This document shows positions 897-63,049 of a stretch of DNA of 64,000 nt, piece by piece (position 1 is the first letter of the stretch; every line of letters starts with the position of its first letter). This stretch comes from a virus, in the IMG/VR virus record IMGVR_UViG_3300018080_005856, positions 64,001 through 128,000 of that record; one strand, written 5' to 3'. The notes beneath the pieces were generated by a model that was not told the origin of the DNA, searched no databases, and saw nothing but the letters and a program-made list of their open reading frames with translations. The position numbers were made by a program, and so were the translations under genes.

Positions 897-911
897 GCTA
901 GTACCCGTATG

Positions 912-1799
912 TTAAATTTCATCGTCACTACCATTATCCTCCACTATCTCGGCATCTACAACGGTGCGATTTTCCACTCCGGATACTACTTTCTCCAGCC
1001 TATCTACAAGAGCTGCCGTTCTGGCCAAAGCGTCTTGGCCAGCTTTCTTCTTATACTTTTCAGCCATTTCAGGAGTAGCAAGAAGTTGACGGTATATCTG
1101 GTCCCTCTGTCTCCTTACCCTCTCCTTTATACGTATAGAAATGGCCTCCTCCTCCTTGTAGTACACCTCTCCAGTTTCTTCATTTACTACCGTAGGTACC
1201 TGGGTTGAAAACCCTTCAGCTGCAAGAGTACCATCAGCCCTCATGGATAATAGGTCGGCCTCTATTAGACCCATGATAAGGTTGTGTGGTATTATATCCT
1301 CTTTAAGCCTTTCAGGTTCTGTTCCTAGTCTTTCAGATACTGAGTCTACATATTCATCATACAACATTGTAACCATCTTTGATTCTATAGGGCATCTTTC
1401 TCCCACTGGGGCCCGGCCTATGATATCATATGGGCAGTTGTCTTTGTTGGAACATTTAGGACCACATACTTGTATTATAGCATTAGCAAGAGTATTTCTT
1501 GGGGATGTTATAGCCTTGCTTAGTTTCTTCAGGACAGACAGGGTCCACTTATTATCCCTGAAGAATTCCTCTCCGTATATACTTATTATATTATCCTTCA
1601 TATATGCGGGGATCTTATAGTGGGGAACAACTCTGTTTGGATCCTTTACACGATACACAGGTTCATCTGATTCCAGCTCGACAGTGATTATTTCCTCTGT
1701 TATGTCGGCATCTCTTATACTGGGAACCTGAGAATCTTCGTGCTCTAGATTCTCATTTGTTCTCCGCTGTCTCTTGGTTTTAGTAGGTTGATCTGGCAT
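912..1799 (-). CDS. Hypothetical phage protein with Cys cluster (possible small terminase subunit)
   Basis: 295-aa ORF with CGPKC..CP..CPIE followed by a helical charged C-terminus. The TerS idea rests only on size and proximity to TerL. Confidence 0.4.
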   Translation of the reverse strand: MPDQPTKTKRQRRTNENLEHEDSQVPSIRDADITEEIITVELESDEPVYRVKDPNRVVPHYKIPAYMKDNIISIYGEEFFRDNKWTLSVLKKLSKAITSPRNTLANAIIQVCGPKCSNKDNCPYDIIGRAPVGERCPIESKMVTMLYDEYVDSVSERLGTEPERLKEDIIPHNLIMGLIEADLLSMRADGTLAAEGFSTQVPTVVNEETGEVYYKEEEAISIRIKERVRRQRDQIYRQLLATPEMAEKYKKKAGQDALARTAALVDRLEKVVSGVENRTVVDAEIVEDNGSDDEI

Positions 1800-27788: not shown

Positions 27789-27796
27789 GGTGTTTC

Positions 27797-28063
27797 CTAT
27801 CCAATAGAAACATCTATTTTAAGCTCAACTGGAACTACCTTACAATATCGAACGTTATTGGCTCCCCACTTTTCAACCGCCGTAACATATATGGCCTTCT
27901 TTATCTTCATGTCTTGTGGTGATGATGAATATTCATCAAAACTCACAACCGTCTGCGTCTGGCCCTTCGGCGTCAGCTTTCGTATCAGAAGGAACTCCAC
28001 TGTCGGGAGGTCCACCATTAGCTCCTCCTTGGTCTGGTTCTGCTCCTTTATCTTCCCCGCCAT
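27797..28063 (-). CDS. Hypothetical small protein
   Basis: 88 aa with AGGAGG upstream. Confidence 0.6.
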   Translation of the reverse strand: MAGKIKEQNQTKEELMVDLPTVEFLLIRKLTPKGQTQTVVSFDEYSSSPQDMKIKKAIYVTAVEKWGANNVRYCKVVPVELKIDVSIG

Positions 28064-28382: not shown

Positions 28383-28389
28383 ATAATCC

Positions 28390-46366: not shown

Positions 46367-49300
46367 ATGGCATTTACAGACCCCAGAAGGGCAATAGCGA
46401 AGGCTGAACAGGGAGAAATGTCTGAATTCAGTACCATAAAGAACCTTGGTCTGATAGGAATGATATCTGTTACTGGTATACGGCTTAGTAATTACATGGA
46501 ACGTCAAAGAGCGGCCATAGAGGAAAACGTCCTAAGAGCAAAAACAGAGATAGAAAGAGCTGCTCTTATCTTTACTGACGATACTAATATGAAACTGAAT
46601 ACCAAGGAAGGTACAGTAAGTCGAGTAGAGTACATAGATACCGGTGAAGGTTATGACCCTATGGCTGAGTGGCAAGCGTTAAAGGAGAAAGGACTAAGTG
46701 AACCAGCTCCATTCACCGACACGATGATGCCAGCTGAGATGTCAGATGAATTATATGAACAGGCAAAGTTGGTAGATGATCTCAATATGAGACTTGCCGG
46801 CAGGGAACCAATGACTGCCAGTGAAGCAAGTCAATCTATGGCAAGATATAGGAGACTGAGTGATAGACTCCAAAAGGAGTACCCTGGATTACAAGCTTCC
46901 GTAGAAAGTGTAGAAGGTTTACGAATAACAAAGGTTACAGAAACTGGTACAGACTTTCTGATGCATGTACATGATGGTGTACGTCACGAGGTCATAAACC
47001 TACCTAAGTGGTCATCTGGTATATTGTCATGGGGTGGTAATATGTATGCTACCAAACAACCAGCCCAGATAACGGGAAATATGATACAGGTGGGCGGCAC
47101 AATAGAGAATGTTATCAAGAGAGTAGCGGAAAGATTAAGAAAAGGAACATTTGGAAGAGTAGGAAAAGCCAGAGAACTAAGGGATATAATAAGAAACCAA
47201 CTGCACGTAAACATAGGCAAACTAGTAGATGGCCATAGTATAAAGCATTTACTGACCAAGGAGGTCAGCTTTGAATCTCTGGCAGCAAAGTTTGGTGGAA
47301 AACCATCAGAAGCAGGTTCCCAAGCTAGGGAATGGGTAGCTTCTCTAACAGATAGGCTCAGTGTATATGCTAAAACAGGGCCGGGCCTCAGAAGACTGGA
47401 CAAGATATTTCCAGGTAATATACCTACAATAAGTCTTACATCATCATCAGAGGCTTCTTTCGTAAAAGGCTTTAACATGAGAACCAGGCTGCCATACGGC
47501 GTTGGACCATTGGATACACGAGCCAAAGCATCAACCACAAGGGCTAACTACATAAAGGGAAAATATATGTTTGACGCTCGTATGAGTCCAACAAAGGTTG
47601 CCTCCAAACTTGGGCCTCTTCCCATGGATGCTGCAGATCTACTATCTAAGGAAATGGTGGAAGGGCTCCCTGGTGGATTTATGAACATGGGAGTATATCT
47701 TGGAAAGGGGGAGATAGAAAAGTTAGGACCTGGTGGTGGTGTATATTTGCTAAGGAACCTGATGGATCCTACTGGACAAATGTCAGAAGACTTGCTGAAT
47801 GCCAGAGAGTTCGATGGTGTAAGAGAACGTGTGCATAGAATTCCTATAACTAGCAGACAGGAAGGGATGCAAATCCTGAGGGATATGAAAGCTATGATAG
47901 GAGATAAGAAAGAGCTCATTCTCAGAAAAGGTTCTCAGATAGGCCCGATAGGCTCACCGAGAGCCGTAGTAATGGATGAAAGACAGAAAGTTACCTATAC
48001 TAATATCATAGAAGATGAATTGATAATAAGGACAGAAGCAGACAGACCTCTTGGACTCATGACAAAAGCCACCCAGAGTAAAGTTATGATTCAGAGAGTA
48101 GAAATGGCCGGAACATCTTCTGAACTATTTTCCTCGCTACATCCGGAATCTACGCTAATAGGAAAGATGGTGCAACAGACAAAAGCAGCACAGCTTGGTG
48201 CAGAAATGCTCGTGAACATGGATGCCCTAATGAAATATCAAGGGGGTGGCCTAGGATGGGGAATTATCCAAAAGACCATGTCCGACCTCATAAACCTAAA
48301 GAAAGCTGAGATAGCTCGAATACATAAGGAGAATGCCTCTAAGATATTACCAACAGAGATGAAGAAATTAGAGGGGGAGCTTAAGGACCTCCTGAGAACA
48401 TTCTTAGGGGCTGATATAGATAACGTTGTACATAGTGTAGGTATAGTCCAGGATGCCAATAGACCATATATCATTCTAAAGGGTGCCGATCAGATGCCAT
48501 CAGGGGTAGCAGCAACTATGGCAGACCCCGCATTCTACAAACTCATCGATATAGAAGACGCATTCTTTAAAGCATCAGCAGGGGATTGGAGCAAACTAGA
48601 AGAGTATGAAAGAAGAGTTTCCACACATGCAAAGAATGTAGGATTACCACAGTATCGCATGATCACTACTGTGAGTAATGTAGAACGAGAAATGGCAAGC
48701 ATGGTGGAAAAGTCAGAACAGTTCATGCCCACTATAGTCAGAACCAGATTATCTAAGGGAGGAAAAGTAGGTCATAAAATGATATGGGCAATGGCCCAAG
48801 TCCCATGGATGACCCACCAGCAGAATGCCTATGAGTATGCTAGATTTGGTGGGCTAGTACGTTCCAAGGGTGGATACAGTGGGGGGTTTAGATCAACACT
48901 TGATCACTACGAAATAGCCAAAACGGCTGGTTGGCATCAATATGCCAGGTATCTGGATATGCTTATGGATCATGATATGGACTATATCAGAGATAAAATG
49001 TATACAGCTGAAGCCATGCTACTAGGTCCCAAAGCGTCATTACAGAAGCCACCCATAGGGACTATAAACGTTAGTGGGATGACAGTCATAAAGCAAGCCC
49101 AGCTGAACCAAACCGGTATAAACAAGCGTCTTGCCGAGTACAATTTCCATGAAGGAGCAATGAAATATGCCGGAATATGGAGAGTACACCATAGCAATTT
49201 ATCTGGACTGCAGGGAGCTATAGATGATCCAGAAGTGAAACATCTAATAGATGATGGAATTATCCAGTTTGATGACCTGAGGACTACCGCGCACGCTGCG

Positions 49301-52300
49301 TCAGGGCGCCACTCAGTAGATGTTACTGACTCAGCACTTGTACATGATATAGTAGACCTGATGAAAGGAGCAAAACCAGATGAAGCTGTGTTCTTAGAGT
49401 TACCGGAAACAATAGTTATGAACGGAAAGGAGGTAAGATACATACCTATAGATAAGTTCGATGTAGCTGATACCTTCGAACTAGAAGCACGAAGAGGACC
49501 AGATGGTACCACCCTGGATGATTATCTGCATAAGAAGTTTACAACCGGTTCTGGGTTTCACAGTAACCGAATGTACATAATGAAAGAGACAGCACGGATA
49601 TCCGAAGAGATGAGAATGTTGAAGAGAAATAGGAAGGGTACCTCTCATTTGAAAGAAGAAATGAAAATAGCTGTATCCAGGTATTATGCTGAGTTGGATA
49701 GACTTCTCAATATGAAGAACAGCCCGGCTCTAAAAGCAATGTTCTCATATAATATGCCTTTCAGTATGAGAGGGGTAATAAACAGTTTATCAAAACATGA
49801 CGCTGGCAAACTCGTAAAGGGAGTAGATGGTATACCGGTAGATCAAATGTATATACATGCTGACTATGCTACGCAACTTATATCAGGTGGAAAGATAAAG
49901 AGCATGTCACATGCCAGGAACTTGGCTAGAAGCACCGAGGCTATATTAAAAGTCCAGGAACTTCTAAAAGGAGTTGATACTTCGTTCTTCGAAACATCAT
50001 CAGTAGATGATATGGCAGAACTAACAGTCAAACTGGGTAAGAGCTTGGGGAGAATGACAAGAGAAACCAAGGCAACTATGGATCTTCAAACTGTCAAGGA
50101 ACTAATAGGCCTGGGCTATGCTGCCAGAAAGCGGGGATCTACTATGCTAAGGTCAATGTTGGAGTCTAAGGATGGACGCTCAAGAATGGGAAGGCTGGCA
50201 AATGAACTCAAGAACTCTTCATTGATGAAAGGTGAACTAGACGGCATGGCTGCAGACGATCTTAAAAGAGTAAGGGCCATGAGTAAATACACTCTAGAAA
50301 CAGTTCAGGCTATTCAAGAGGGTACCTTGGAAGTTGGGGGAGTCATGGTACGGGCGCCTGAGCTTTCCCAGATGTCCATGAACTATTTCAAAATGAAGGT
50401 CCTTGGAGCTACAGAGTTTTCCCAAAAGACTGTAAACGATAAGTTGGTCAAGGAAATACTAAGCCGCATGAAGGATGATAAGGGAAAGGGAGGCATGTAT
50501 ATAGCCAAAGAGGCGGCAAAGCAGATAAGCGGTGACCAGGATATGGACCCTAGCGGGTTTGTTGTTACTACCCTAGATGTGCTTGAAAACCAATCAAAGA
50601 AGGTTGCTCAGCTATCTATATTAAAGGAGGCAAAGCTTCTAGGAGTAAAGGGTAGTGATATACAGAAAGCACTGTATCATGACGTCACAGAAGAGACTCT
50701 AGTAAATCTTACCATGTCAAGATTATTCCAAACAGCTACAGACGACGAGGGAAAGATCATACTACAAAGACCAGCTAGTATATCCGCTATCACACAAATG
50801 GATGCCATGGGAGACCTTCTAAAGGAAGCCAGAGTAGATATAAAGGGAATAGAACAGTACGTAGGAGAATCGCTGTTGGGATTCTATCCGGATCCGGCTG
50901 ACCTAAAGGCACTAGGTCTTACTCATGTGCAGGTAAGAGACAATGTTGTTGATAAGATAATGAAGGAGGCCAGAAAGTATCTGGGAAACAACGCAAGGCT
51001 GGAAAACCTTTCTGTTATAGTAGGAACCAGGGAGTTACCTAATAAGTCCATAAGAAAGACTGTAGAGCAGCCGAGTATAGCTGTAAAAGATCCCCAGAAA
51101 CTTATATCTGAGACGCCCGAAGCAGCTCCAATAGTTGCCAAGCAGGCCATTACTGCTGATGAACTTTATGTTCGTGATGCAATATCAAAAGTAGACGCGT
51201 CAGAGTTCAAGGCTTATCAGGAAAGAGTTATAAGAGAAGAAGCCCCAAGGTTCCAAATAATAAAGGAGCAGGTACCGACTGGATACAACGCTGCAAAGGC
51301 CTTATACACTCTGAACTACAGTTACGTAACAAATGAAGCAGACAAGGCATTCCTTACATGGATGGCAGATAAAGTACTAGCACAGAATGTAATTTCCTCC
51401 AAGCATGGTACTCCCCAGGTTCTCGTAGACATGACTAAGACTCTTAGGAAACTTGGCAGCATACATAACGAAGTGATGGAAGCTGATATAACAAAGCTTG
51501 TTACGCAGAATGCGTATCTTACTGTGAGCCAAGCTGAGAAAGAGGACATGGCAAGATTAGGGTTCAAAACGGAAGATGTGAATATGGATCTTTACCAGGA
51601 CTATATTGACAAGAAGTTGGTCAATCTTACTGAGTTGAATAACATACATGAGACAGTTACCAATGATATGATAACAAACGCCTCTACTCTCCGTAGCAGC
51701 GAGATGGATATAGAGAAAGTGTTCCGTTCAACTGTAGATCTTAAAGTGAAGAACAGTTCTCTTCTCAAGAATTATCAAATGCTGGAGATGGATTTCACTC
51801 CTCTATTAGTATCTAATGAATTAAGAAGAGCTAAGGAAGCTAAAGAGAACGTAGCCAAGTTTAGAAAGAAGATGACAATGGCTAGTGTTCTGGGAGAACC
51901 TGAAGATGTGATAAGACAGAGATATATTACTATGATAGGAGCTATGAGAGAATACTCTTTTAAGAACAGGGGAATAAGTGTATTTGATGACCCAGCAGTT
52001 AGCACGTTCAGACATATGGAGGGAGGGGAAAGATCTGCCCTGGAGCTCATAAAACGATTCGTAAGCAGAGAATCAACAAGAACAAATAGCGCTGACGGGA
52101 TTGTCACAGTAAGAGCTCAAAATACCATAGAGGGAAGGCTCATTAAACTAGGAGCAGTTATCACAGGACGCAACGATATAAACCGTATGATAATAGGCGG
52201 AGATACGTTATCTGACCGCCAAATGAGATTAAATTACCTCCACAGCCGAGAATTACGGCAACTCAGAAGAAGCTATGCTGAAAGAATAGTAGAAGAGAGC

Positions 52301-52732
52301 AGTGTATTCCGTACTGGATCTATGTTTAATCTGATAGAGAAGAAAATAGTGCAGAGTACTGACACAGTAGCCCAGGATATGGCTCTAAAAAGAGTAGGTA
52401 AACTGAAAGGGGCCAGTTTGCTTGTAGGTCTTTTAGCTGGTACAATAATAGGGCAGTCAATAAATCAGATTGCACATGGATATCCTGTTCCAGATCTAGG
52501 AGGAATAAGAGAAGGTCTTGGGGGAGAATACTTTGAGAATAGATCGGGTTACCTCGGAAGAGAAATAGAGGCAACCATGGGGCACAGACCAACCAAGATA
52601 ACCTCCAACAGAATATACGAGAATGTGGTTAATCGAGAACTTGGTTCTATAGGCGACGCTGAGGTGGCTGCCGGGTCCACGGTGGGAGTACGGAACCTTT
52701 CACCATATCTCAAAGGTACTATAATAAGATGA
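46367..52732 (+). CDS. Single-chain two-barrel (beta+beta'-like) RNA polymerase, probably virion-packaged
   Basis: Ordered motifs: PLGLMTKATQSKVMI, EMLVNMD, H-x7-AR, GGFR, FSMRGVI, VRAPELS, SGDQDMD, K-x5-GY (bridge-like) and QNVISSKH (trigger-like). Confidence 0.78.
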   Translation: MAFTDPRRAIAKAEQGEMSEFSTIKNLGLIGMISVTGIRLSNYMERQRAAIEENVLRAKTEIERAALIFTDDTNMKLNTKEGTVSRVEYIDTGEGYDPMAEWQALKEKGLSEPAPFTDTMMPAEMSDELYEQAKLVDDLNMRLAGREPMTASEASQSMARYRRLSDRLQKEYPGLQASVESVEGLRITKVTETGTDFLMHVHDGVRHEVINLPKWSSGILSWGGNMYATKQPAQITGNMIQVGGTIENVIKRVAERLRKGTFGRVGKARELRDIIRNQLHVNIGKLVDGHSIKHLLTKEVSFESLAAKFGGKPSEAGSQAREWVASLTDRLSVYAKTGPGLRRLDKIFPGNIPTISLTSSSEASFVKGFNMRTRLPYGVGPLDTRAKASTTRANYIKGKYMFDARMSPTKVASKLGPLPMDAADLLSKEMVEGLPGGFMNMGVYLGKGEIEKLGPGGGVYLLRNLMDPTGQMSEDLLNAREFDGVRERVHRIPITSRQEGMQILRDMKAMIGDKKELILRKGSQIGPIGSPRAVVMDERQKVTYTNIIEDELIIRTEADRPLGLMTKATQSKVMIQRVEMAGTSSELFSSLHPESTLIGKMVQQTKAAQLGAEMLVNMDALMKYQGGGLGWGIIQKTMSDLINLKKAEIARIHKENASKILPTEMKKLEGELKDLLRTFLGADIDNVVHSVGIVQDANRPYIILKGADQMPSGVAATMADPAFYKLIDIEDAFFKASAGDWSKLEEYERRVSTHAKNVGLPQYRMITTVSNVEREMASMVEKSEQFMPTIVRTRLSKGGKVGHKMIWAMAQVPWMTHQQNAYEYARFGGLVRSKGGYSGGFRSTLDHYEIAKTAGWHQYARYLDMLMDHDMDYIRDKMYTAEAMLLGPKASLQKPPIGTINVSGMTVIKQAQLNQTGINKRLAEYNFHEGAMKYAGIWRVHHSNLSGLQGAIDDPEVKHLIDDGIIQFDDLRTTAHAASGRHSVDVTDSALVHDIVDLMKGAKPDEAVFLELPETIVMNGKEVRYIPIDKFDVADTFELEARRGPDGTTLDDYLHKKFTTGSGFHSNRMYIMKETARISEEMRMLKRNRKGTSHLKEEMKIAVSRYYAELDRLLNMKNSPALKAMFSYNMPFSMRGVINSLSKHDAGKLVKGVDGIPVDQMYIHADYATQLISGGKIKSMSHARNLARSTEAILKVQELLKGVDTSFFETSSVDDMAELTVKLGKSLGRMTRETKATMDLQTVKELIGLGYAARKRGSTMLRSMLESKDGRSRMGRLANELKNSSLMKGELDGMAADDLKRVRAMSKYTLETVQAIQEGTLEVGGVMVRAPELSQMSMNYFKMKVLGATEFSQKTVNDKLVKEILSRMKDDKGKGGMYIAKEAAKQISGDQDMDPSGFVVTTLDVLENQSKKVAQLSILKEAKLLGVKGSDIQKALYHDVTEETLVNLTMSRLFQTATDDEGKIILQRPASISAITQMDAMGDLLKEARVDIKGIEQYVGESLLGFYPDPADLKALGLTHVQVRDNVVDKIMKEARKYLGNNARLENLSVIVGTRELPNKSIRKTVEQPSIAVKDPQKLISETPEAAPIVAKQAITADELYVRDAISKVDASEFKAYQERVIREEAPRFQIIKEQVPTGYNAAKALYTLNYSYVTNEADKAFLTWMADKVLAQNVISSKHGTPQVLVDMTKTLRKLGSIHNEVMEADITKLVTQNAYLTVSQAEKEDMARLGFKTEDVNMDLYQDYIDKKLVNLTELNNIHETVTNDMITNASTLRSSEMDIEKVFRSTVDLKVKNSSLLKNYQMLEMDFTPLLVSNELRRAKEAKENVAKFRKKMTMASVLGEPEDVIRQRYITMIGAMREYSFKNRGISVFDDPAVSTFRHMEGGERSALELIKRFVSRESTRTNSADGIVTVRAQNTIEGRLIKLGAVITGRNDINRMIIGGDTLSDRQMRLNYLHSRELRQLRRSYAERIVEESSVFRTGSMFNLIEKKIVQSTDTVAQDMALKRVGKLKGASLLVGLLAGTIIGQSINQIAHGYPVPDLGGIREGLGGEYFENRSGYLGREIEATMGHRPTKITSNRIYENVVNRELGSIGDAEVAAGSTVGVRNLSPYLKGTIIR

Positions 52733-52881
52733 AGATAACATTGTATGTACGACCTGATGCCAATGTATCATCATATGCCAGGTCCATAAAGTCACTCATA
52801 GAAGAAGAAACCGGGCAGTTGTGTATAGTGAAGGTTTCTGAAAGTAAATTTAAGCCTGTGAAGGTAAAAGAAGAGAGTTAA
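52729..52881 (+). CDS. 50-aa hypothetical protein
   Basis: Below the track cutoff. MKITLYVRPDANVSSYARSIKSLIEEETGQLCIVKVSESKFKPVKVKEES; ATGA overlap upstream and TAATG overlap downstream. Confidence 0.65.
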   Translation: MKITLYVRPDANVSSYARSIKSLIEEETGQLCIVKVSESKFKPVKVKEES

Positions 52882-54767
52882 TGAGTACTTCCTCGGATAA
52901 CATAAGAAGGATGGCTGCCGGAGAACCTATAGCTAGGATAGGCGCTATATGGTACGGTGATGTAAGCGGGACAACTATTCCTAACATATACTATTTCGGG
53001 AATAAGAATATGCAGAGTGTTATGCCACTGCGGGCAGAGTCAGCTATATCGTTCTCAACTTCTAGTCCTCCTGTAGATATGTTACAGATGGAAATAGTGA
53101 TCAACTACAGCAAGTTCGTCACACATCTCCAGCGCCTTATGGCACAGATACAGATATCTCCAGTGCTACCAGTACAAAACCCGGTTGTTGCTGCAATGAC
53201 ACAGCCTGTACAGACCAACAAAGAGGTGTACGTTGCCTATGGTTTCATGAATGTCAATGATAAAGATATAAAAGACTCCTCAAATCGCAGGGCACTTATG
53301 AACATGTATGCTACTGTGCCTGTCAATATGAAAATAGACAACGCAGTTATAGAAACTATTCCTGGCAATCCCAGAGATGTAAGAGTAATCCTGAGGCTTA
53401 CCAGGACATTAACAGCTACTGTATATGGTGATAAAACACAGTATATCAGAACTATGGAAGGGGCTGTAAATCAGAACAAGTACATAGAGAAACTTCTATC
53501 AGAAAGTGGCGATAATGAGCAAATAGCTGCTATGGCTACTATGATGGGAGTGAATACCCCAGCAATACAGGATGCTATAGATGCTATGTCTACTCCAATA
53601 TCGTTAGGAGAGGACATAGGTATAACTATAGGAGCAGAAGTGAATGAAGTACTTGCACCAGACCTATACCGGGTTACCACAGATGATGGTAATAGTGCTC
53701 TTATTATGCCATATGGTATTGAATGTTTTAACAGCAGAGAAAAGATAAGACTATTTATGGATGTAAGTCACTATGATGATTACCCAGTAAAAGGAGCAGA
53801 GAAGAACAGTGTAGAGGCTTTAGGATACTTTATAGGGAGTATGTTTGGACTTACCATTCCCAATGAAAGGTTGAGAATAACTGGACCTGATTTCTCAGGG
53901 GCCAATAACAGAATAACCATGCATACTATACAGAAGGGGCCAATAGGTCTTCTCGATAATCCCAATGCAAGCAATGAAGATGTTTCTATACATTATTGCA
54001 TCATAACTCATGATCAAATGGGAGATATAGGTAATACCTTATTATCGTTGGGAGAAGCTTTCGACTCTCCATTATATGATAGTGAGATAGTTCCAGAAGG
54101 ATACACAACAGCTAGGATTGCAGCAATAAAGGCTGGGGAAGAGACCGTATCAAAGCAAGAAGCTGGAGACACCTATAGTACGTATTCATGTGCCAAGGTA
54201 TTGACTAGGAATGCCAAGGCAGAAATACCATGGACACAAAGAAGAAACATGAGGAACAAGATTTCTACTGGGGTAGACCCATCTGTAGGATTTATATCAA
54301 GTCCATATACAGCTACGGTGGAATCTATAACTAATGGCGATACTATTGTTGTCAAGAAGTCAGACAATTCTTCAGTAACTCTTGGATTGTTTGGTATAGA
54401 TGCGCCGGAAACTGGACAACCTGGAGGAAATGAGGCAACAGCCTGTCTTTCTAGCTTGCTTCCAATAGGTAAAACTGTAACAATTCAACATGTTCCATCT
54501 GGTCCAGCCGGGGGTGAAGTAGATATATTTTCCAGATATTCATCAATAGTGAAATCAGGAAGACTTAATATAAATACAGAGATGCTGAAAAGGGGTATGG
54601 CGTGGGCATATCCTAACAAACGTTTTGATGTATTGAATGAAGAATACGAAAACCTTATGGTTGCTGCAAGAGATAGAAAGATAGGTATATGGGCATTGAC
54701 AGAGAAGAAAGCAAAATGGACTCCTGCCGAATACCGTAGATACATGCAGTCCAAGGGAAGGATATAA
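52881..54767 (+). CDS. Tail-associated protein with thermonuclease (SNase-like) domains
   Basis: C-terminal ITNGDT..LFGIDAPE..DIFSR..INTEMLKRGMAW..ARDRKIGIW, plus a second degenerate copy upstream. Confidence 0.8.
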   Translation: MSTSSDNIRRMAAGEPIARIGAIWYGDVSGTTIPNIYYFGNKNMQSVMPLRAESAISFSTSSPPVDMLQMEIVINYSKFVTHLQRLMAQIQISPVLPVQNPVVAAMTQPVQTNKEVYVAYGFMNVNDKDIKDSSNRRALMNMYATVPVNMKIDNAVIETIPGNPRDVRVILRLTRTLTATVYGDKTQYIRTMEGAVNQNKYIEKLLSESGDNEQIAAMATMMGVNTPAIQDAIDAMSTPISLGEDIGITIGAEVNEVLAPDLYRVTTDDGNSALIMPYGIECFNSREKIRLFMDVSHYDDYPVKGAEKNSVEALGYFIGSMFGLTIPNERLRITGPDFSGANNRITMHTIQKGPIGLLDNPNASNEDVSIHYCIITHDQMGDIGNTLLSLGEAFDSPLYDSEIVPEGYTTARIAAIKAGEETVSKQEAGDTYSTYSCAKVLTRNAKAEIPWTQRRNMRNKISTGVDPSVGFISSPYTATVESITNGDTIVVKKSDNSSVTLGLFGIDAPETGQPGGNEATACLSSLLPIGKTVTIQHVPSGPAGGEVDIFSRYSSIVKSGRLNINTEMLKRGMAWAYPNKRFDVLNEEYENLMVAARDRKIGIWALTEKKAKWTPAEYRRYMQSKGRI

Positions 54768-57700
54768 TGGCAAATAAGGTACATATAACTGACGAAGATA
54801 GAAAAGCAGCTGCCGACGTTTTCTCTGCATATACCGGTGAACTGGATGAAGATCAATATATAGATCCAGGTACTATACCAGTCACTGATGATATGAGTGA
54901 GTGCCAACCATTCATAGACCTTGTTAAACAGCTTACTGGAGAATCCACTACCGACATAGCTGATCTTCCGTTTGATAAGTACACACCATTTGACCAAACA
55001 CGTTTGGATCATCAGTTCAGGATAACAACAGTACATAAGGATCTTACAGCTATTGTACCAGAGGTAGACAGGTTCAAGGAATTCTACAGGATAGCTGAGC
55101 AATTTACTAATGAGAGTTCTCTGATAGTATCAGCAGCAATGGACTCCAATATCAAAGATATCACATGTATGCCTCCCTCTTATGTGTTTTCATATGCAGC
55201 AAAGAAGATCAGAGAAGTCATTACTATGCTGCAGAAGGAGAACATACCAGGGTTATCTGACCTGAAGGACTATGCCGGCAGATTTGATCGGCTAGCCTCA
55301 GACGCGAAACATATGCAGGCACCATATCCTGACACATCTACTCCTGCGTTTGATCCAGATGATTATGCTATCAGAATAGTTGCAGATAGTGTTACGTTCC
55401 CGCTTGTACCACGACTTAACGAAACGGAACCAACTGGGGACTTTGGATTTATGACTCCTGAGAGACCCTCACATAGAGGACTAGATCTTAAAGTCTACAC
55501 CGAGCAGGCAGTAAGCAATACGGGGAAAATATATTATACTTCTTCACACCCTGTTGTTGCAATTGCAGAAGGCAAGGTAATACATTGTACCTCTTCTAAC
55601 AATCTAGCTAAACCATGTGTACGATTCGATACTGATACTAATCATGGAGAAGATGTAGACGGGAAGATATTCGAGGGTAGAGACGGTGGGAACATCGTAA
55701 TCATATGGCATCCTGATCTTGGTAAAATGTCAGCATACATGCACCTTAGTGAAATATCTGTAAAGAAAGGTAACAGTGTATTAGCCGGTGATGTAATAGG
55801 AGTAGCAGGAAATACTGGTGGATCTACCGGACCGCATCTCCATTTCGAGATGAGAGATCCTTCCCTAGCCAAGGGAGCGGCAGCAGATATCTCATCGTGG
55901 AGAAAAGGAGTACCAATAAACCCATGGCCATACATTGGTGGAGGATATAATGGGGATCCCACAAACTCTGAACCAGCCATAAAGCTTGAAGCAACTCAGG
56001 GAAACCTGAAGGCTGAGGATACAGTAGAAGACTTCAGAGAATATCTCAATTCTTTAACAATGTCACCGGCGGAGAACCCCGAAGATCAATCAAATGTACT
56101 ATATGCAATTCACAGACAGATAATGGCTAGGGTAACTTCTTCCGTTCACTCTGTGTATGTTAATGATATCAGCGGGAAAGCTGAACAAGTGACAATAAAC
56201 TGGATGCCGGGAACAAGCAAAGCTATTCCTATAGAGGGGCAAAGTGCACCGGTTATACAATCACTTGGTGGAAGAAACGTGCAGGTTTCTATTTCGTTAA
56301 AAGGCATTAGTCCTGTAGAAGTGGCCAAGATAGCTCTTATGTTTAAGGTTCCCAGTACTGACGAAACAATAGCAGGTATGCTGACGCTAGCAAGAAGTGG
56401 CATGTTCGGAGAAACATCCATCAGAAACAGTTACCTGCAAAGATGGTACAGAACTGATCAAATAGAGAGCATGTTACGTGGCATAAGTGGTTCCACCCAA
56501 AAAGTACATCTAGATGAACCAGTAATCGTAGATAATGAATACCTTAACTCTATGGGGCTTAAAACCTTTCATCCTATAAGTATGGAAGTGAAAACAGTTC
56601 CCCAAGCATCAGAAGCATATGACATACTTCTAACGCTATCATATATGAACCTCAGAAATAGAAGCTTAGAATCTTTGAAGAAAAGCAGACATGGTATTCA
56701 GGCACCAGTTTTACCTGTAACGGCTAGAGTTTTTCCAGAAAAGGCAACGGGAGATTCAGGGTTCGGACTAGAATCCGATTATCAAGCATATGGGATACTG
56801 AGTAGATTGTCCATTGTAAACTGTCTTGCTGAAATATTACCTCTGTATATCATGTCCAGAGTGTATAGGTTGTATAAAACTATGTCAGAATATACTCCAG
56901 GATCAGTAATAGATCTAGACGGACTAGATATCATGACAAAGATCCTAGCACCAACCGGCATAGATACGGCCATAGAGAAAGTATTCTCCACAGTAAGAGA
57001 TTACGATACGGATGTTCCCTCCTTCTCCAGTGCTATACTCGATGCATCTATGGAACTTGCCAACCTGGGGACTGTTGCAGCATTGTCACGTTACACTGAA
57101 AAGACAATAGAAGTAGCAAAACAGGGTACAGGCAGCAATAAGTTCTCAAAGATTGTTGCCGCAACACTTGGTGCTGTTACTACGTTAAACAGTGTTCTGA
57201 AATACGCTTTTGGTCCTGTTGGCACCCCAGAAGTAAACAGAGGAGCGGAGACAAGAACACTTTATATGAACATTCCCAGCCTTGCTCCTATAATGATATG
57301 GTCATTGTTAGCGGAATTTATAGACAGATTATCAGCCGGGAAGGAGAATGAGTTCTTTTCAGAAATATCCAATGATGTCATAGATATGTTGAATGATTCC
57401 TATGCTGAGCCCAATGTCAGAACACTCAGAATTGGTGGGAGCGATGAAGTATTCGTAGAAGTAAAGGGAGCTATAGGACAAGAAGCAGCTGGTGGAGAAT
57501 ACAAACCTCTGTTTATCGGAGAGATAAAACTCTCTATGATAATGGGAGGAGAACACGATGATAGTGAACGCAATACTCTATTCGGAAGCATAGATGTCAG
57601 TGAAGGTCTTGGTCAAATATGGTTCGGATCCGAAGATGCTAAAGCTTTAAGGAAGAAGCTTGTGGATGAAATCGAAACCATGGCCAGGAATCCGAGAGGA

Positions 57701-60700
57701 AACTACGATACGAGATTCCTATATCCGGCAGCTTATGGTGCTGTAGAGATAAACTGGTTAGCAATAGATGCTATAAGAGCTGCAGCTTTAGCTATAGGAC
57801 CAATGCTGGCCAATGATAATATGAAGCCGGGAGGTGATATTCCCGATGGACATATGAGTGAGTTCTTCCAAACCGCAGCAGAGCTTCTTAGAGATGAAAG
57901 TGCTAGAAACCATTGCTCCGACGTTCTTACATCTGTTCTCACGTATTCTATGGCAGATGTACTAGCAAATGGAATGATAGCTACTCATGGTAGAAAAGCG
58001 GCATATGCTCATAATGACTCTGTACTAAGAGCGTTTAACAAGATGTCCAGTTTAGAAACAGAGGATACAGTTGTTACAGCTCTGCAGTATTTGGGATCCA
58101 GAATACAATCACATATAGTGAAAGCCAGAAGAGTTACACAAAGCAGAGATATGTGCACACAGGTAGTATCCGGAGTGTTTGCCGATAGATCTTTCGGTGG
58201 TTCCAAGGACCTAAGGAAAGGATATTGCTGTGCTCTCGGCTCTGTTCTTAATTATATGTATCAAGTTGCCTATGCCGGCACAGAAACAGTGAGCAGCCTT
58301 CCGCCTGAATATAATGACTATACTATCCCAGCCATGCTACAGATAATAGATAGGGATCGTGGTGAGCTCATGATAGACGAGCTATTGCATCGTGGCAAAA
58401 GCTTCTTCGCTGCTACGGTCGGTTTTCTCCCTGACATAATAATAGGAGCAGCTATAGCTTTGTCAGGTCCTGGGGCAGTGCTAACCACTATATTCTATAT
58501 AATACGCGGAGCCATGGATATATGGGCAGTATGGGATCTAGTCATGAGTATATTCAAAGAGAATGCTATAGAATTTGCATTCGGAAGAGGTAACATATTT
58601 GCCATGTCCAGATGGTGTTCAGGAAGAATATCAGATGCAATGGATCAATCACAATTGCTAGAATGCTGTATTAAGAGCGGAATCTGGATGCCGGCAGCTC
58701 TAAAACCAAGGGGTGATACATTTGATGAAGAAAGAACATCATATAGAGATTTCCCTACTGTGCATAGGGGCGGAAAACCATTACCCCCAGACTTCTTCGT
58801 ATATAAAGTAGGCATTTTATCTAAGGCGTATGACGATATGAAATCGTACATAAACTCGGCTGTAGAGTCTACTAGAGACCGTTACGCCGACTTGGATAAC
58901 GATAATGTTGAGGCACTAAAGACTGAGCTAAAGCAAGAAATAGACGAATCGAGAGAACTATCTAGGGCTAGAGTTCAGGATGCTCTTACCAGAGCGCTAA
59001 TAGATAGTACTCCTGAGGACAAATCACTAAAGAAAGACTACATGCAGGCTGTAGGGAAATCTGGGGATATCATAAGCTATGTAGTATATGGTAATAGAAC
59101 AGATGCAGCAAAGAAAGGGCATATATGTTCTACAAAGTATGGGTCATATAGTAGTACAGTCAGCAAGGCCGGATCTATGTTGCATCTTGATATGAGTGAC
59201 GTAGGTGTAGTAGTAAAGATAGGCAGTTCTTTCACTCCTATATCGAAGGGACCAGAACTGTCAGAACTCATAACTAATAAAGGCGAGCTAATGCAAATGA
59301 TCGTAGAGGCCGCTAACTCGAGCCCCTATGGTAAAGTAAGAGAAAACCTGAAGTCATTCCTACAGAGATCTATAAGAGAAATACTAGATTATATAGCAGC
59401 TACAAAGGCTCTAGGGGGACAGTTCGTATACGGTCTTGATACCATGCCAGGAACTATAGGAAACTTGATATTAATCAAGAACATTGTTGGTTCCAACATA
59501 AGGGCTATAGGGAAACCGGGACTGGCATTGTTCAAGAGCCAGATGGATAAGGTTGGACGAGATTCTCTAAGAAGATCCTCTACTCTACAAACCCAATATA
59601 TATTCCCAACTGTGAAGCTATACTTTATAGAAGAAGACAGCGAGAACTTTTATCTATTTGATGATTTGTATTCATATGCATCTATAGTAGAAGTATCAGT
59701 TCATATGGATAAATACAGCCCGGTCCGTACATCTGAGATAAAGATAACAAACCTATTTGGTATGTTGAACGATATACTATCTGACTCAAAGAACAAGGAG
59801 TATAACTTCTTTAGCGGTCCAGATGAGAACGCTCCTCTAAACTCTGTTATGTTGAGACCGGGATGCAAGATAAAGATCCAAGCCGGCACTACTCCAATCC
59901 TAGACGAGCATGATACTATATTCACTGGAAGAATAAGCACTATAGATTTCAATGTTATCACAACTATTACAGCGGTAAGCGCTGGGGACATGTTTACAGA
60001 AAGCTTAAGCATGGACGTGGTAAAGGTCTATGGTAGTCAGGCCAATGCAACAGGCGGACTAGGTACTAAACTGATACAGGCACCTATCCGTGAGGGAATA
60101 CAGTCTATGGTTGGTGATGACTACATGGCTCCAATTACAAAGCTAAAGACTGTCATAGGGTATGTATTGTATGATGTTGTACAGTCCACGGAGAGGCTCA
60201 CAGATTTCTCGCTAAGGCCACCTGTAGAAGTACAGGATCCTGAAATATCTCCTGCTACCAGTAATCTCATGGATATACTGAAGAAGAAGCTTATTATAAC
60301 TCAGTCATCCTCGTTCATAGAATCAGTGAGCGGGGCCAGGGTAGATCTTCAGGAGAACCAACAACTGTTTGAAAACATATACCTTGATACCGATGTTATA
60401 GGGTCATCATGGTTCGGAAACTTGACGTTTATAGGAGAAGGTGTGTGGGTTTCTAGAGATGAGTCAGCATGGGATATAATGAGTGAACTAAATCTTCTCT
60501 TACCCAACCACGATGTTCTAGTGAGACCATATGATACTAGATCTACTCTAGTTTGGAATAACGACGATGGTTATTACCGGTTCAGGAGATGTGTAGACCT
60601 TGATAATATCCTTACTAATGCTCTTACAACCAAGCTTAGAATAGCAGGCCGGGACCCAAGGTTCAAACTTCTCCCTCTATTTGACGTAATAAATCAGGGT

Positions 60701-63049
60701 ATGAATGGTGGGAGCCCAAGAAGGAAAGCCGCGGCCATAGCGCTGCTTACGCAGCTGGCTTACATATCACAACGAATATATGGGAGTTTCATGCTTACTG
60801 CCCCCACAGAGTACAGGGCTGAGATTCCTGATGATAAACTAATTCTAATGTCACCAGATATATCAAACGAGGAAATGATACCTAAAGCTCTAGATTGGTT
60901 ATCCCCTGAACTCATAAAGAACACGGGATCTGTGTCTGTAGATATAGCAGAAATTCTTGAGAACATTGCAGACGAAAATGAAGAGGAGGACGAGTTCATA
61001 CAAAATGGTGTCAGTAACCTAAAGCTCGAAGATGTATCAATATCACCAGACTCATCACCAATACCGAGCTATATAAAGAAAGACGAGGCCAAGACTGCTT
61101 ATCTGTTGTCATTAAACCTTGCTGCTGATAGTACAATGAACTTTATGAGAGAATTAGCATTCACAAGGAGCAAGAACCACAGGAAAGTATCTGATATGCA
61201 CATTAAGGTGTCGGGTAGAGATATAATAAAGAACGATATAACACTCATGGAGCCATATAACACGGTGAGAATGTCATATCCGAAAGAGGACCTAAGCGAT
61301 GACGAGCTCTCAGCTGCAGCACTTTTGGGTGTGAGCGGAGAGGGAAATGAAATCATGGTACCCATTCATTATAAGCTTAAACCATGGGGAAGGAAGATAT
61401 ACCAGACACATTTTAAGAATGCGAATGTTCTTCCCACAGCACGTACCAGTGCTATATCCACCGCGACTACAAGCGTGTTGGCTAATCTTATGAAGGAAAC
61501 ATATGGTGGGACAATTACTCTGCTTGGGGACTCCAGAATAATGGAGGGAGATAGGATATTCCTATGGGATGAAAACAGGGATCTATACGGGGTAGTTGGA
61601 GTAAAATCACATACTTTCATAATGAGTCCAGAATCAGGTTGTATGAGTGTGATAGAACCGGAAATGATTACTAGGAACGATGGAAAGCTGAAGAGGAACC
61701 TGTATGATACTACTGTTACCACACTCAACATAATAACAAAGACACTAGGGACCTTGGTATTAATAGGCGGTTCATACCTGTTGTTCAGATATGCACGATC
61801 AAGATATAGAATGTCAAGTGCTCTACTGGATGTAACAGAACAGTCAGGATTCTGGGTGAGATTGTTAACGGGTATAGGAAGATCCTTGAGAAATCTAAGA
61901 GATAATCTTCCTCTTGCCAAACTCATAGGAAGAGGTTTTACTTCATGGTTCCATACTCTTGATAACGGTAAACTAGCGAAAGGGCTTTACCGTAGTTACA
62001 TGAAGACGTCCAGTACACTGAGGGAAATATTCGATCCTAACTTTGTAACAGATACAACAACGGCACTAAGAACTTGGGCAAGAGGGGTAAGTGAAACATA
62101 CAAGGATCTCCCTCTAGTTGGATCTATCATAGGCAGTAAACTTACTGATAGAAACCTCAACCGGGTAATAGAAAAGGCTGTAGATACTGCCATGGACAGT
62201 CTAGTTACATTGAAATCAAGCAAAATGGCAGCCAGCATAGATATACCAACAGGTGAGTCTTTTAGAAGAATAGTAAAAGACAATGTGATAAAAGAACTAG
62301 ACAACTATCTCCTTACTTTACCTACACCAGTTATTATACCTGACAATAGACTCCTCAGAAGTGGACTGGAAACAGCCGTCTCAACAGTTATCGACTCACG
62401 TATAAAGATCTCAAAAGGAACTGCAGTATCTATGGTAGAGGATTTCGATAGCACATTGAGGAACCTTGTAAAGGAAATGGAGGTTGGAGAGAATACGGTT
62501 AGAGAATACGTTAGGAACCTTAACCCGTCTCAATATCCTTCGGGTATCCTAGGCAGAGGACTACACCTAAGAACTGCAAAGGAGAAGGACTTTATAGTAA
62601 AAGCAACAGAGGGAATGATAACTGAAACAAGGAGAATGTGTATATCCGACTCTAAATCTCTGTTATCTATGGTAAAACGGTACGGGGGAATGCTTACAAA
62701 AGTAGCAATAGGCGGGAGTATAGCTTACGAAGCGTTCTCTGCGGCAGCCAGTGCTATAGAACTATACATGTTTATAAGGGAAACAGCAGACAAAATAGTG
62801 TTATCTCCTCTCATGTTCAGAGGAGAACCATTCATGGCTGGCCTAGAAGGTGTTACAAAGCAGGATGGTGAACAAGCAGGTTTTGCTGGTATAATGGTTT
62901 CCAGGTTCACCGATGTTGTAGAGGCCTTTGGAGATAGATTATCATCTCCTGTATTATCAGCTTTGGTAGAACTGGAAAAGATGAAAAGGGGCACAGTCAG
63001 GGATATAGGTGGAGGAAACAGGCCAGGACCTGTAGTAGAGAGAGATTAA
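54767..63049 (+). CDS. Giant tail-tip protein: M23 peptidase plus baseplate-hub-like region
   Basis: M23 motifs HRGLD (55472), YMHL and GNTGGSTGPHLHFE (55835). Hub-like LRPGCKIKIQAG..IFTGRI and YGGTITLLGDSRIMEGDRIFL. Two hydrophobic segments. Confidence 0.8.
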   Translation: MANKVHITDEDRKAAADVFSAYTGELDEDQYIDPGTIPVTDDMSECQPFIDLVKQLTGESTTDIADLPFDKYTPFDQTRLDHQFRITTVHKDLTAIVPEVDRFKEFYRIAEQFTNESSLIVSAAMDSNIKDITCMPPSYVFSYAAKKIREVITMLQKENIPGLSDLKDYAGRFDRLASDAKHMQAPYPDTSTPAFDPDDYAIRIVADSVTFPLVPRLNETEPTGDFGFMTPERPSHRGLDLKVYTEQAVSNTGKIYYTSSHPVVAIAEGKVIHCTSSNNLAKPCVRFDTDTNHGEDVDGKIFEGRDGGNIVIIWHPDLGKMSAYMHLSEISVKKGNSVLAGDVIGVAGNTGGSTGPHLHFEMRDPSLAKGAAADISSWRKGVPINPWPYIGGGYNGDPTNSEPAIKLEATQGNLKAEDTVEDFREYLNSLTMSPAENPEDQSNVLYAIHRQIMARVTSSVHSVYVNDISGKAEQVTINWMPGTSKAIPIEGQSAPVIQSLGGRNVQVSISLKGISPVEVAKIALMFKVPSTDETIAGMLTLARSGMFGETSIRNSYLQRWYRTDQIESMLRGISGSTQKVHLDEPVIVDNEYLNSMGLKTFHPISMEVKTVPQASEAYDILLTLSYMNLRNRSLESLKKSRHGIQAPVLPVTARVFPEKATGDSGFGLESDYQAYGILSRLSIVNCLAEILPLYIMSRVYRLYKTMSEYTPGSVIDLDGLDIMTKILAPTGIDTAIEKVFSTVRDYDTDVPSFSSAILDASMELANLGTVAALSRYTEKTIEVAKQGTGSNKFSKIVAATLGAVTTLNSVLKYAFGPVGTPEVNRGAETRTLYMNIPSLAPIMIWSLLAEFIDRLSAGKENEFFSEISNDVIDMLNDSYAEPNVRTLRIGGSDEVFVEVKGAIGQEAAGGEYKPLFIGEIKLSMIMGGEHDDSERNTLFGSIDVSEGLGQIWFGSEDAKALRKKLVDEIETMARNPRGNYDTRFLYPAAYGAVEINWLAIDAIRAAALAIGPMLANDNMKPGGDIPDGHMSEFFQTAAELLRDESARNHCSDVLTSVLTYSMADVLANGMIATHGRKAAYAHNDSVLRAFNKMSSLETEDTVVTALQYLGSRIQSHIVKARRVTQSRDMCTQVVSGVFADRSFGGSKDLRKGYCCALGSVLNYMYQVAYAGTETVSSLPPEYNDYTIPAMLQIIDRDRGELMIDELLHRGKSFFAATVGFLPDIIIGAAIALSGPGAVLTTIFYIIRGAMDIWAVWDLVMSIFKENAIEFAFGRGNIFAMSRWCSGRISDAMDQSQLLECCIKSGIWMPAALKPRGDTFDEERTSYRDFPTVHRGGKPLPPDFFVYKVGILSKAYDDMKSYINSAVESTRDRYADLDNDNVEALKTELKQEIDESRELSRARVQDALTRALIDSTPEDKSLKKDYMQAVGKSGDIISYVVYGNRTDAAKKGHICSTKYGSYSSTVSKAGSMLHLDMSDVGVVVKIGSSFTPISKGPELSELITNKGELMQMIVEAANSSPYGKVRENLKSFLQRSIREILDYIAATKALGGQFVYGLDTMPGTIGNLILIKNIVGSNIRAIGKPGLALFKSQMDKVGRDSLRRSSTLQTQYIFPTVKLYFIEEDSENFYLFDDLYSYASIVEVSVHMDKYSPVRTSEIKITNLFGMLNDILSDSKNKEYNFFSGPDENAPLNSVMLRPGCKIKIQAGTTPILDEHDTIFTGRISTIDFNVITTITAVSAGDMFTESLSMDVVKVYGSQANATGGLGTKLIQAPIREGIQSMVGDDYMAPITKLKTVIGYVLYDVVQSTERLTDFSLRPPVEVQDPEISPATSNLMDILKKKLIITQSSSFIESVSGARVDLQENQQLFENIYLDTDVIGSSWFGNLTFIGEGVWVSRDESAWDIMSELNLLLPNHDVLVRPYDTRSTLVWNNDDGYYRFRRCVDLDNILTNALTTKLRIAGRDPRFKLLPLFDVINQGMNGGSPRRKAAAIALLTQLAYISQRIYGSFMLTAPTEYRAEIPDDKLILMSPDISNEEMIPKALDWLSPELIKNTGSVSVDIAEILENIADENEEEDEFIQNGVSNLKLEDVSISPDSSPIPSYIKKDEAKTAYLLSLNLAADSTMNFMRELAFTRSKNHRKVSDMHIKVSGRDIIKNDITLMEPYNTVRMSYPKEDLSDDELSAAALLGVSGEGNEIMVPIHYKLKPWGRKIYQTHFKNANVLPTARTSAISTATTSVLANLMKETYGGTITLLGDSRIMEGDRIFLWDENRDLYGVVGVKSHTFIMSPESGCMSVIEPEMITRNDGKLKRNLYDTTVTTLNIITKTLGTLVLIGGSYLLFRYARSRYRMSSALLDVTEQSGFWVRLLTGIGRSLRNLRDNLPLAKLIGRGFTSWFHTLDNGKLAKGLYRSYMKTSSTLREIFDPNFVTDTTTALRTWARGVSETYKDLPLVGSIIGSKLTDRNLNRVIEKAVDTAMDSLVTLKSSKMAASIDIPTGESFRRIVKDNVIKELDNYLLTLPTPVIIPDNRLLRSGLETAVSTVIDSRIKISKGTAVSMVEDFDSTLRNLVKEMEVGENTVREYVRNLNPSQYPSGILGRGLHLRTAKEKDFIVKATEGMITETRRMCISDSKSLLSMVKRYGGMLTKVAIGGSIAYEAFSAAASAIELYMFIRETADKIVLSPLMFRGEPFMAGLEGVTKQDGEQAGFAGIMVSRFTDVVEAFGDRLSSPVLSALVELEKMKRGTVRDIGGGNRPGPVVERD

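Follow-up and report, generated by a model that had tools for sequence, protein, structure and literature searches.

A candidate single-chain RNA polymerase of the beta-beta' type encoded among the tail genes of a phage genome

The gene and its locus

The 64,000-nucleotide stretch analyzed here (the window) comprises bases 64001-128000 of the 150,487-bp linear IMG/VR virus record IMGVR_UViG_3300018080_005856, which is estimated to be 79% complete. It carries a 2121-amino-acid (aa) open reading frame (ORF) that is predicted to encode an RNA polymerase in which a beta-like and a beta'-like half are fused in one chain. The gene lies within a tightly packed, same-strand run of giant genes coding for proteins of 1042, 1966, 197, 263, 2105, 2121, 628, and 2760 aa. 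An earlier note, written from the raw sequence, had read the ORF as such a polymerase on the basis of short motifs. Each of the quoted motifs was found at the residue given for it, and two of them were read back from the DNA, ISGDQDMDPSG at 50525-50557 and PLGLMTKATQSKVMIQR at 48047-48097. The features of the gene and its surroundings are listed in Table 1.

Table 1. Coordinates of the polymerase candidate, its predicted parts, and associated genes (window positions unless stated otherwise; pLDDT, predicted local distance difference test)
Feature	Position	Strand	Residues	Basis or remarks
Single-chain beta-beta'-type RNA polymerase candidate, whole gene	46367..52732	+		2121-aa ORF, ATG start; about 24 full-length relatives and fold matches
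N-terminal hydrophobic helix, after conserved M-x-DPRR start	46433..46489	+	23-41	Kyte-Doolittle 1.02 (19 residues); shared by nearly all full-length relatives
Beta-like module, collinear with whole beta/Rpb2 subunits	46862..48883	+	about 166-839	Model and fold searches
Two-lysine loop K567...K572 of beta-like barrel	48065..48082	+		Conservation; model pLDDT about 85-89, hairpin loop
Beta'-like module: clamp-like start, catalytic barrel, bridge-helix and trigger-loop region	49016..51466	+	about 884-1700	Model and fold searches
Catalytic double-psi beta-barrel A, split by an approximately 180-residue helical insert (1143-1320)	49745..50566	+	about 1127-1400	Generic barrels align
Predicted metal-binding triad D1390-Q-D1392-M-D1394	50534..50548	+		Three Asp invariant; hhalign pairs it with NADFDGD of E. 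coli beta'
Bridge-helix-like helix (K1633) and trigger-loop-like helical hairpin (QNxISSKHGTP)	51251..51457	+	1629-1653; 1657-1697	Conservation, predicted helices
Conserved hydrophobic, Gly-rich C-terminal tail: hydrophobic helix 2010-2033, then GYPVPDL..GLGGEY..GRE..KG-x-(I/V)-(V/I)-R	52394..52729	+	2010-2121	Kyte-Doolittle 1.53
Candidate partner gene upstream, 2105 aa	40047..46364	+		0 Cys, 27 Trp; an approximately 2110-aa protein precedes the polymerase gene in three relatives' contigs
628-aa protein with C-terminal staphylococcal-nuclease domain	52881..54767	+		Pfam SNase E 1e-9; PHROG endonuclease; domain and position kept in closest relative
2760-aa tape-measure-like protein with M23 peptidase domain and six hydrophobic segments	54767..63049	+		Pfam Peptidase_M23 E 8e-18; PHROG tape-measure and endolysin families
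814-aa ORF, YonO/RdRP-like second polymerase candidate (RdRP, RNA-dependent RNA polymerase)	genome 49014-51458, outside the window	-		ESM Atlas shape neighbors, family motifs

Visibility to sequence searches and the protein family

The polymerase identity of the 2121-aa gene escapes standard annotation by Pfam, PHROGs, and PDB sequences. Pfam and PHROG scans of the ORF, its halves, and its relatives yielded no polymerase family, and phmmer and profile searches of the PDB sequences gave no match to the ORF. Nor did Pfam show an exonuclease domain in the ORF. The Pfam model RNA_pol_Rpb1_2 found nothing in the phage genome, and tblastn of the ORF against 50,697 phage records returned zero matches. 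When IMG/VR was scanned with conserved peptide patterns, relatives of the ORF were not found. A PF21476 match on one relative in the Pfam scan was below threshold and was taken as chance.

A word-indexed search of 5.8 billion proteins returned only three relatives, of 2110-2125 aa each. With a profile of residues 545-1700, 29 proteins were recovered from 1.84 billion cluster representatives, about 24 of them full length (1816-2295 aa). All members of the family are metagenomic and are unnamed or labeled hypothetical; one sits on a 217,693-bp contig.

Conservation was counted in an alignment of 24 full-length members with 17-46% identity to the query and a mean column identity of 27%. Twenty-five columns were invariant, and another 32 were conserved at a level of at least 90%. 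The invariant set includes K572, H817, P1331, D1390, D1392, D1394, K1633, Q1673, K1679, and G1681, and the columns of K567 and H1680 reached at least 90%. The aspartate triad and the two lysines named in the earlier note are thus kept across the family, as are H817, K1633, Q1673, and H1680, which it had also named. The same does not hold for N617, R842, and R1135, which were not conserved, nor for R1329, where the family has arginine in about half of its members and glycine in about half, that is, in most of the others, next to the invariant P1331. The motifs exceed chance. Of the 13 residues picked out in the earlier note, 9 lie within the 57 conserved columns (hypergeometric P = 2.5e-12) and 7 within the 25 invariant ones (hypergeometric P = 2e-11). 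Judged from these columns, the putative metal-binding, nucleotide-facing, bridge-helix-like, and trigger-loop-like residues are under selection.

The consensus of the triad in the family is (R/G)DFDxD, and several members have exactly DFDGD, DIDGD, or DMDGD, so the DQDMD of the studied phage is a variant of the universal polymerase motif.

The beta-like module

Two fold models were produced with AlphaFold2, without templates, from 24-sequence alignments. Exhaustive structural alignment covered 48,161 representative chains, and rows within 1 Z unit of each other were treated as ties. In the structure prediction and Foldseek comparison suggested in the earlier note, both models retrieved RNA polymerase and nothing else at that level.

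The model of residues 150-900 had a pLDDT of 81.8 and a predicted template modeling score (pTM) of 0.80. The top 50 Foldseek matches in the PDB were all second-largest polymerase subunits, with the best E values for plastid RpoB (2.2e-6), mycobacterial beta (5.8e-6), and vaccinia Rpo132 (1.5e-4). In the exhaustive alignment, the nine best of the 48,161 chains were all of the beta/Rpb2 type (Z 8.1-11.7). They were the PhiKZ non-virion enzyme (Z 11.7), AR9 (10.8), African swine fever virus (ASFV; 10.5), Xanthomonas beta (10.2; 463 residues aligned, model 18..690 to beta 33..1303), vaccinia (10.2), plastid RpoB (9.8), and the second-largest subunits of Pol IV (9.5), Pol I (9.0), and Pol III (8.1). 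The next chain had an unrelated fold (Z 5.6). The collinearity with the second-largest subunit reaches beyond the barrel (beta 33..1303), and ahead of the two lysines the chain follows the N-terminal two thirds of beta collinearly. The proposed pairing of K567 and K572 with K1065 and K1073 was also that of the best local hhalign alignment to E. coli beta 1040-1342, which was weak (E 0.16). Searched by shape against the ESM Atlas, the beta-like model returned nothing above noise (template modeling score [TM] < 0.3).

The beta'-like module and the catalytic barrel

The model of residues 545-1700 had a pLDDT of 71.7 and a pTM of 0.61. All of the top 50 Foldseek matches were beta' chains, with weak E values (from 4e-3) and probabilities of 0.9-1.0. 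Structural realignment to beta' gave Z 9.0-9.5 over approximately 330 residues and placed model 340..1156 onto beta' 25..1150. In the exhaustive search, the 16 best of the 48,161 chains were all two-barrel polymerases (Z 7.5-9.0), collinear over approximately 800 residues. They were Pol I, Pol II, mycobacterial beta', plastid RpoC1, QDE-1, AR9, RDR2, archaeal RpoA', PhiKZ, Pol IV, Schizosaccharomyces pombe Pol I, vaccinia, Pol III, ASFV, Pol V, and P74-26 gp62. QDE-1 (Z 8.8) and RDR2 (8.6) tied with beta' (8.9-9.0), and gp62 scored 7.5; P23-45 gp96 and phi14:2 gp66 ranked after the 16 chains, both at 6.5.

Generic double-psi barrels (the designed barrels 7dww and 7dvc and the N domains CDC48-N, VAT-N, and PEX1-N) aligned to model 584..935, which places the catalytic barrel at about the residues given in Table 1. 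Two pairings drawn from motifs in the earlier note were recovered as the best local profile alignments to E. coli beta': VRAPELS...DQDMD with NRAPTLH...NADFDGD (E 0.005), and MKNSPALK...PFSMRG with GKQGRF...DYSGRS, the first strand of the beta' barrel (E 0.025). The family form of the latter segment is GKxSP...PFSxxG. Each of the residue-pairing profile alignments is weak alone, yet at the sequence level they agree with the module order seen in the fold searches.

The structural alignments to beta' extend as far as about beta' 1150, across the bridge-helix and trigger-loop region. ZmRDR2 and P74-26 gp62, single chains that contain both barrels, superposed from model residues 27 and 69, respectively, through 1150. 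Because both barrels are spanned in one alignment, the modeled placement of the two barrels relative to each other suggests a resemblance to that in real enzymes.

These models bear out the earlier claim that one polypeptide holds first a beta-like and then a beta'-like part: residues 150-900 matched only beta/Rpb2-type chains, and residues 545-1700 matched only beta'/Rpb1-type chains and single-chain two-barrel polymerases. The comparison with gp66 and YonO that had accompanied this claim fared less well, the resemblance appearing to be greater to the multisubunit type (PhiKZ/AR9, bacterial, and poxviral). Approximately 820 residues separate the lysine loop (567-572) from the triad (1390-1394), compared with a short connector of approximately 140 residues in the QDE-1/YonO/gp66/P23-45 clade. 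As modeled, the ORF is a beta-then-beta' fusion of the multisubunit type and does not have the short-connector layout of QDE-1, YonO, gp66, and gp96. At the level of predicted structure and aligned sequence, the analysis establishes the fold relationship, the module order, and the conservation of the catalytic residues of the fused polymerase.

Two other assignments were considered and discarded. Whole-profile hhalign comparison with phi14:2 gp66 produced alignments at chance level only, and a pairing of residues 623-646 with the gp66 bridge helix was rejected because the fold searches put these residues in the beta-like half. The possibility that the ORF is itself the tape measure was dropped in view of its mixed alpha/beta polymerase modules, the lack of a peptidase domain, and the restriction of hydrophobic helices to both ends; both this fold and the tape-measure features of the 2760-aa neighbor speak against it.

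Termini and cysteine content

The hydrophobic N- and C-terminal segments described in the earlier note were present (residues 23-41 and 2010-2028) and conserved family-wide. The C-terminal 110 residues are the best-conserved part of the family, with G2021, G2025, Q2030, P2042, G2050, G2053, E2054, E2068, and G2117 invariant.

The ORF has no cysteine and therefore has none of the zinc-binding cysteine clusters of beta'. Such clusters are typical of cellular enzymes and do not define the two-barrel superfamily. In the family, 20 of 24 members have no cysteine in more than 2000 residues, and each of the others has one. For comparison, the injected polymerase of phi14:2 has 2 cysteines in 2180 residues and E. 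coli beta' has 15. In the studied phage, the 2105-aa neighbor also has none, while other structural proteins have normal cysteine counts.

Genomic neighborhood

The large terminase, portal, capsid protein, and tail sheath are encoded upstream in the window, and a baseplate wedge gene lies downstream of the window. The polymerase gene is embedded in this structural module, between the sheath and the baseplate wedge and near the M23 tape-measure-like gene. The earlier note had placed it between a gene at the tape-measure position and the baseplate genes; the tail-module setting stands, and the tape-measure-like gene turns out to lie downstream of the polymerase gene, not upstream. The gene order was kept in three relatives' contigs, one close and two distant, as proteins of approximately 150, 268, and 2110 aa, the polymerase, and proteins of 345-630 and 2585-2916 aa. 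The M23 domain was also present in the following protein (2585-2916 aa) of one relative.

The 2105-aa upstream protein had no family, PDB, or Atlas match, and a comparison with the polymerase ORF ruled out that the two are paralogues. It is a candidate co-ejected partner. The 628-aa nuclease-domain protein may be an injected nuclease.

In the same run of giant genes, the 1966-aa protein (32731-38631, plus strand) is cysteine rich (40 Cys), unlike its neighbors, and has a weak carbohydrate-binding (CBM_5_12) match and a weak zinc-finger-like match. The plus-strand structural operon is not continuous: between its tail sheath/tube region and the run of giant genes lies a block of minus-strand genes (22953-29484).

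A second polymerase candidate and promoter-like elements

The nearest ESM Atlas models of the 814-aa ORF by shape belonged to phage clusters rich in PF05183 RdRP (TM 0.49, 578 residues). In its six-member family, R496-Y-P-N and Q534-S-D-x-D-D are invariant and are spaced like the R-x-P...DxDxD strand pair of the catalytic barrel. The ORF had no Pfam, PHROG, or PDB-sequence match, and sequence methods gave no confirmation. Its shape and motifs suggest that this protein may be a second, non-virion two-barrel polymerase.

The element TTTCCATA-N4-TG occurs in 12 copies, all on the minus strand at 29.6-48.0 kb of the genome, where about 0.25 copies would be expected per strand. All copies lie within the leftward gene block downstream of the 814-aa gene. 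These elements are promoter candidates for one of the two putative phage polymerases.

Proposed function and alternative explanations

We judge it roughly two-thirds probable that the 2121-residue chain is an active DNA-dependent RNA polymerase, with beta-like and beta'-like halves fused, that is packaged with the products of the tail genes and starts phage transcription. In such an enzyme, D1390, D1392, and D1394 on the beta'-type barrel would bind the catalytic magnesium, as in cellular enzymes, and K567 and K572 on the beta-type barrel would face the nucleotide. The bridge-helix-like helix with K1633 and the trigger-loop-like hairpin (Q1673...H1680) would come next in the chain. The gene would be expressed together with the tail genes, and its product would be built into the virion with the 2105-aa neighbor, the nuclease-domain protein, and the M23 tape-measure-like protein. 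At infection, the polymerase would pass the contractile tail at least partly unfolded, refold in the cell with a need for neither zinc nor disulfides, and transcribe the earliest phage genes independently of the host polymerase. Later, in the manner of Thermus phage P23-45, the 814-aa YonO/RdRP-like candidate may take over. That the enzyme is active, is packaged and injected, and serves the early genes is what we infer from fold, conservation, and context. For virion packaging and injection, the case is strengthened by the conserved synteny, the cysteine depletion, and the conserved hydrophobic termini.

Several findings weigh against this interpretation. The sequence-level matches of the ORF to known polymerases are each insignificant singly, and no cultured member of the family is known. 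The triad of the studied phage itself, DQDMD, departs from the family DFDxD, and in about half of the family glycine replaces R1329, the counterpart of beta' R425. Model confidence was low across the bridge helix and trigger loop (pLDDT of just about 50-70), and hhalign gave no meaningful alignment to the corresponding segment of E. coli beta'. A location in the tail operon alone need not mean that the product is a virion protein.

The last point leads to an unlikely alternative, namely, that the ORF encodes an active single-chain RNA polymerase that remains unpackaged and is made in the cell for middle or late genes, its position among the tail genes being incidental. The fold and the catalytic residues would fit this equally well, and the evidence for virion association is indirect. 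PhiKZ-type phages do have non-virion enzymes, and the non-virion polymerases of PhiKZ/AR9 are the best matches of the beta part. On the other hand, the order with the tape-measure-like, nuclease, and other giant proteins is kept in three relatives' contigs, two of them distant, and the family is nearly cysteine free, like the injected phi14:2 enzyme. Conserved hydrophobic helices at both termini would be unneeded by a soluble polymerase, and an enzyme made only with the late structural genes could not start its own expression.

It is quite unlikely that the protein is derived from a polymerase and no longer polymerizes, serving as a structural or ejection protein, be it a DNA-binding plug, a scaffold, or part of a channel. 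Members that share less than 20% identity overall still keep the three aspartates, the lysine pair, H817, K1633, and QNxISSKHG, so selection appears to act on catalysis and not on the fold alone. Such a loss of activity would nevertheless agree with the non-canonical DQDMD triad of the studied phage, with the loss of R1329 in half of the family, and with the fact that the highest conservation in the family lies in the non-polymerase C-terminal tail.

The similar scores of QDE-1 (Z 8.8), ZmRDR2 (Z 8.6), and the beta' subunits against the beta'-like model would be compatible with a two-barrel enzyme of another activity, either primase-like, an RNA-dependent polymerase (QDE-1/RDR), or a DNA polymerase (archaeal PolD). 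This is very unlikely, given that the N-terminal 670 residues are collinear with the whole of beta, including parts outside the barrel (model 18..690, beta 33..1303), that RdRP or PolD chains are absent from the matches of the beta-like model, and that no PolD is among the top 50 listed for the 545-1700 model. That the resemblance is an artefact of chance motifs and of prediction biased to a familiar fold is highly improbable, even though no sequence method reached significance against known polymerases and the alignment holds just 24 sequences: with two independent half models, built without templates, the only chains retrieved from the 48,161 belonged in each case to the corresponding polymerase subunit, a clear Z gap to the next fold was seen for the beta part, and residues named from the raw sequence turned out to be invariant.

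Comparison with known polymerases

The multisubunit polymerases of PhiKZ and AR9 are phage relatives of cellular beta/beta' without alpha, omega, or sigma homologues (PMC7824862, PMC13282480; PDB 7OGP, 7S00). To the beta-like half they are the closest structures (Z 11.7 and 10.8), they also match the beta' half strongly (Z 8.6 and 8.5), and their virion forms are injected and transcribe early genes. They differ from the studied ORF in that beta and beta' are divided among four or five polypeptides, whereas the ORF is one chain. Their genes lie outside the tail module, the virion enzyme is carried in the head, and sequence similarity to the ORF was not detectable.

In phage P23-45, gp96 is a virion RNA polymerase fused to the tape measure protein, and gp64 is a non-virion polymerase (PMC10770324; PDB 8H2N, 8F5M). 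This system resembles the studied one in having a two-barrel polymerase at the tape-measure locus of a long-tailed phage, which is thought to exit through the tail. It likewise has a second, non-virion two-barrel polymerase, and membrane segments and a peptidase of the M23 type are also encoded in that gene region. However, gp96 is small and flat, belongs to the YonO/QDE-1 clade, and is fused to the ruler of a non-contractile tail, whereas the studied polymerase is a separate 2121-aa protein encoded beside the ruler-like gene of a contractile-tailed phage and has the full beta-plus-beta' composition. The structural match of P23-45 gp96 (Z 6.5) and P74-26 gp62 (Z 7.5) to the ORF is lower.

The gp66 protein of the crAss-like phage phi14:2 is a virion RNA polymerase that has been experimentally proven to be injected (PDB 6VR4; bioRxiv 10.1101/2020.03.07.982082). 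It is a single chain of 2180 aa with DFDxD at 1361-1365, close to the triad position in the ORF (1390-1394), and has an R-x-P upstream of the triad. Its gene, too, lies in a block coding for giant virion proteins, and the chain has few cysteines (two). In contrast to the ORF, gp66 is QDE-1-like, with barrels joined by a connector of approximately 140 residues and 1600 residues with unknown folds, while the barrels of the ORF are approximately 800 residues apart inside whole beta-like and beta'-like modules. The structural score is lower (Z 6.5), there is no profile match, and the gp66 phage is a podovirus.

With E. coli RpoB/RpoC, the ORF shares the module order, the barrel motifs (K...K; R-x-P...DxDxD), and the bridge-helix and trigger-loop positions. 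Cellular beta and beta' aligned to it at Z 8.9-10.2 over 343-463 residues. The ORF is about 630 residues shorter than beta plus beta', has no cysteine and no zinc sites, and carries, in addition, hydrophobic terminal helices and a C-terminal tail specific to the family. Pfam detected no polymerase domain in it. Natural rpoB-rpoC fusions occur in some bacteria.

Coliphage N4 expels a giant virion polymerase together with other ejection proteins, and this enzyme starts early transcription (PMC13434306). The likeness is one of analogous role only: in fold, the N4 enzyme is a T7-like right hand with no relation to the two-barrel enzymes, and it is packaged in a podovirus head.

The combination of a whole beta-plus-beta' in one chain with a location in the tail module of a contractile-tailed phage is found in none of the PhiKZ/AR9, P23-45, and phi14:2 systems, and a full-text literature search found no description of such a polymerase family. 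Two matches of the beta-like model in BFVD are relevant in this respect. The best viral match (E 4.2e-7) was A0A8S5SD80, named "Minor tail protein" and coming from the uncultured gut phage Siphoviridae sp. ctnpt50; A0A172Q0S6 of Acinetobacter phage vB_AbaM_ME3 followed with an E of 3.5e-5. Neither entry was found by sequence. On the strength of these structural matches, other phages may carry unrecognized beta-like polymerase modules under tail-protein or hypothetical names, and the minor tail protein match is a hint that the class is wider than the studied family.

A broader proposal is tentative, and we consider it doubtful at present. It holds that there is a lineage of complete, zinc-free, cysteine-free beta-beta' polymerases which traverse the contractile tail as part of a conserved ejection set of several giant proteins (the 2105-aa partner, the nuclease protein, and the M23 ruler-like protein) and start a two-polymerase cascade with a YonO/RdRP-like enzyme, perhaps as one branch of a wider, unannotated tail-module class whose members now go by "minor tail protein" or "hypothetical." If so, phage forms of the multisubunit enzyme, some fused and some split, would inform the question of how the cellular beta/beta' core originated.

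Implications

Injected polymerases allow transcription to start without the host enzyme, thereby escaping drugs and defenses aimed at it. Such enzymes come in four known designs, namely, those of N4 (T7-like fold), PhiKZ (split beta/beta'), crAss gp66 (QDE-1-like single chain), and P23-45 gp96 (small and ruler fused). If the proposed function is correct, a cysteine-free full beta-plus-beta' chain whose gene lies beside that of the ruler protein in a contractile-tailed phage would be a fifth. It would show that a multisubunit-type core can be fused, cut by about 630 residues, and, if delivery holds, sent through a tail tube. A compact, single-gene polymerase of the cellular type would also become available for structural and biochemical work. 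Family-based annotation misses this polymerase family entirely, so that phages bringing their own transcription enzyme may be undercounted.

Outside the window, a 518-aa protein is encoded at 12978-14534 of the genome (minus strand). It contains DUF285 (Pfam E 5e-22) and leucine-rich repeats of the BspA type (Pfam E 1e-13). This leucine-rich-repeat protein may bind the host surface and offers a weak hint of the host.

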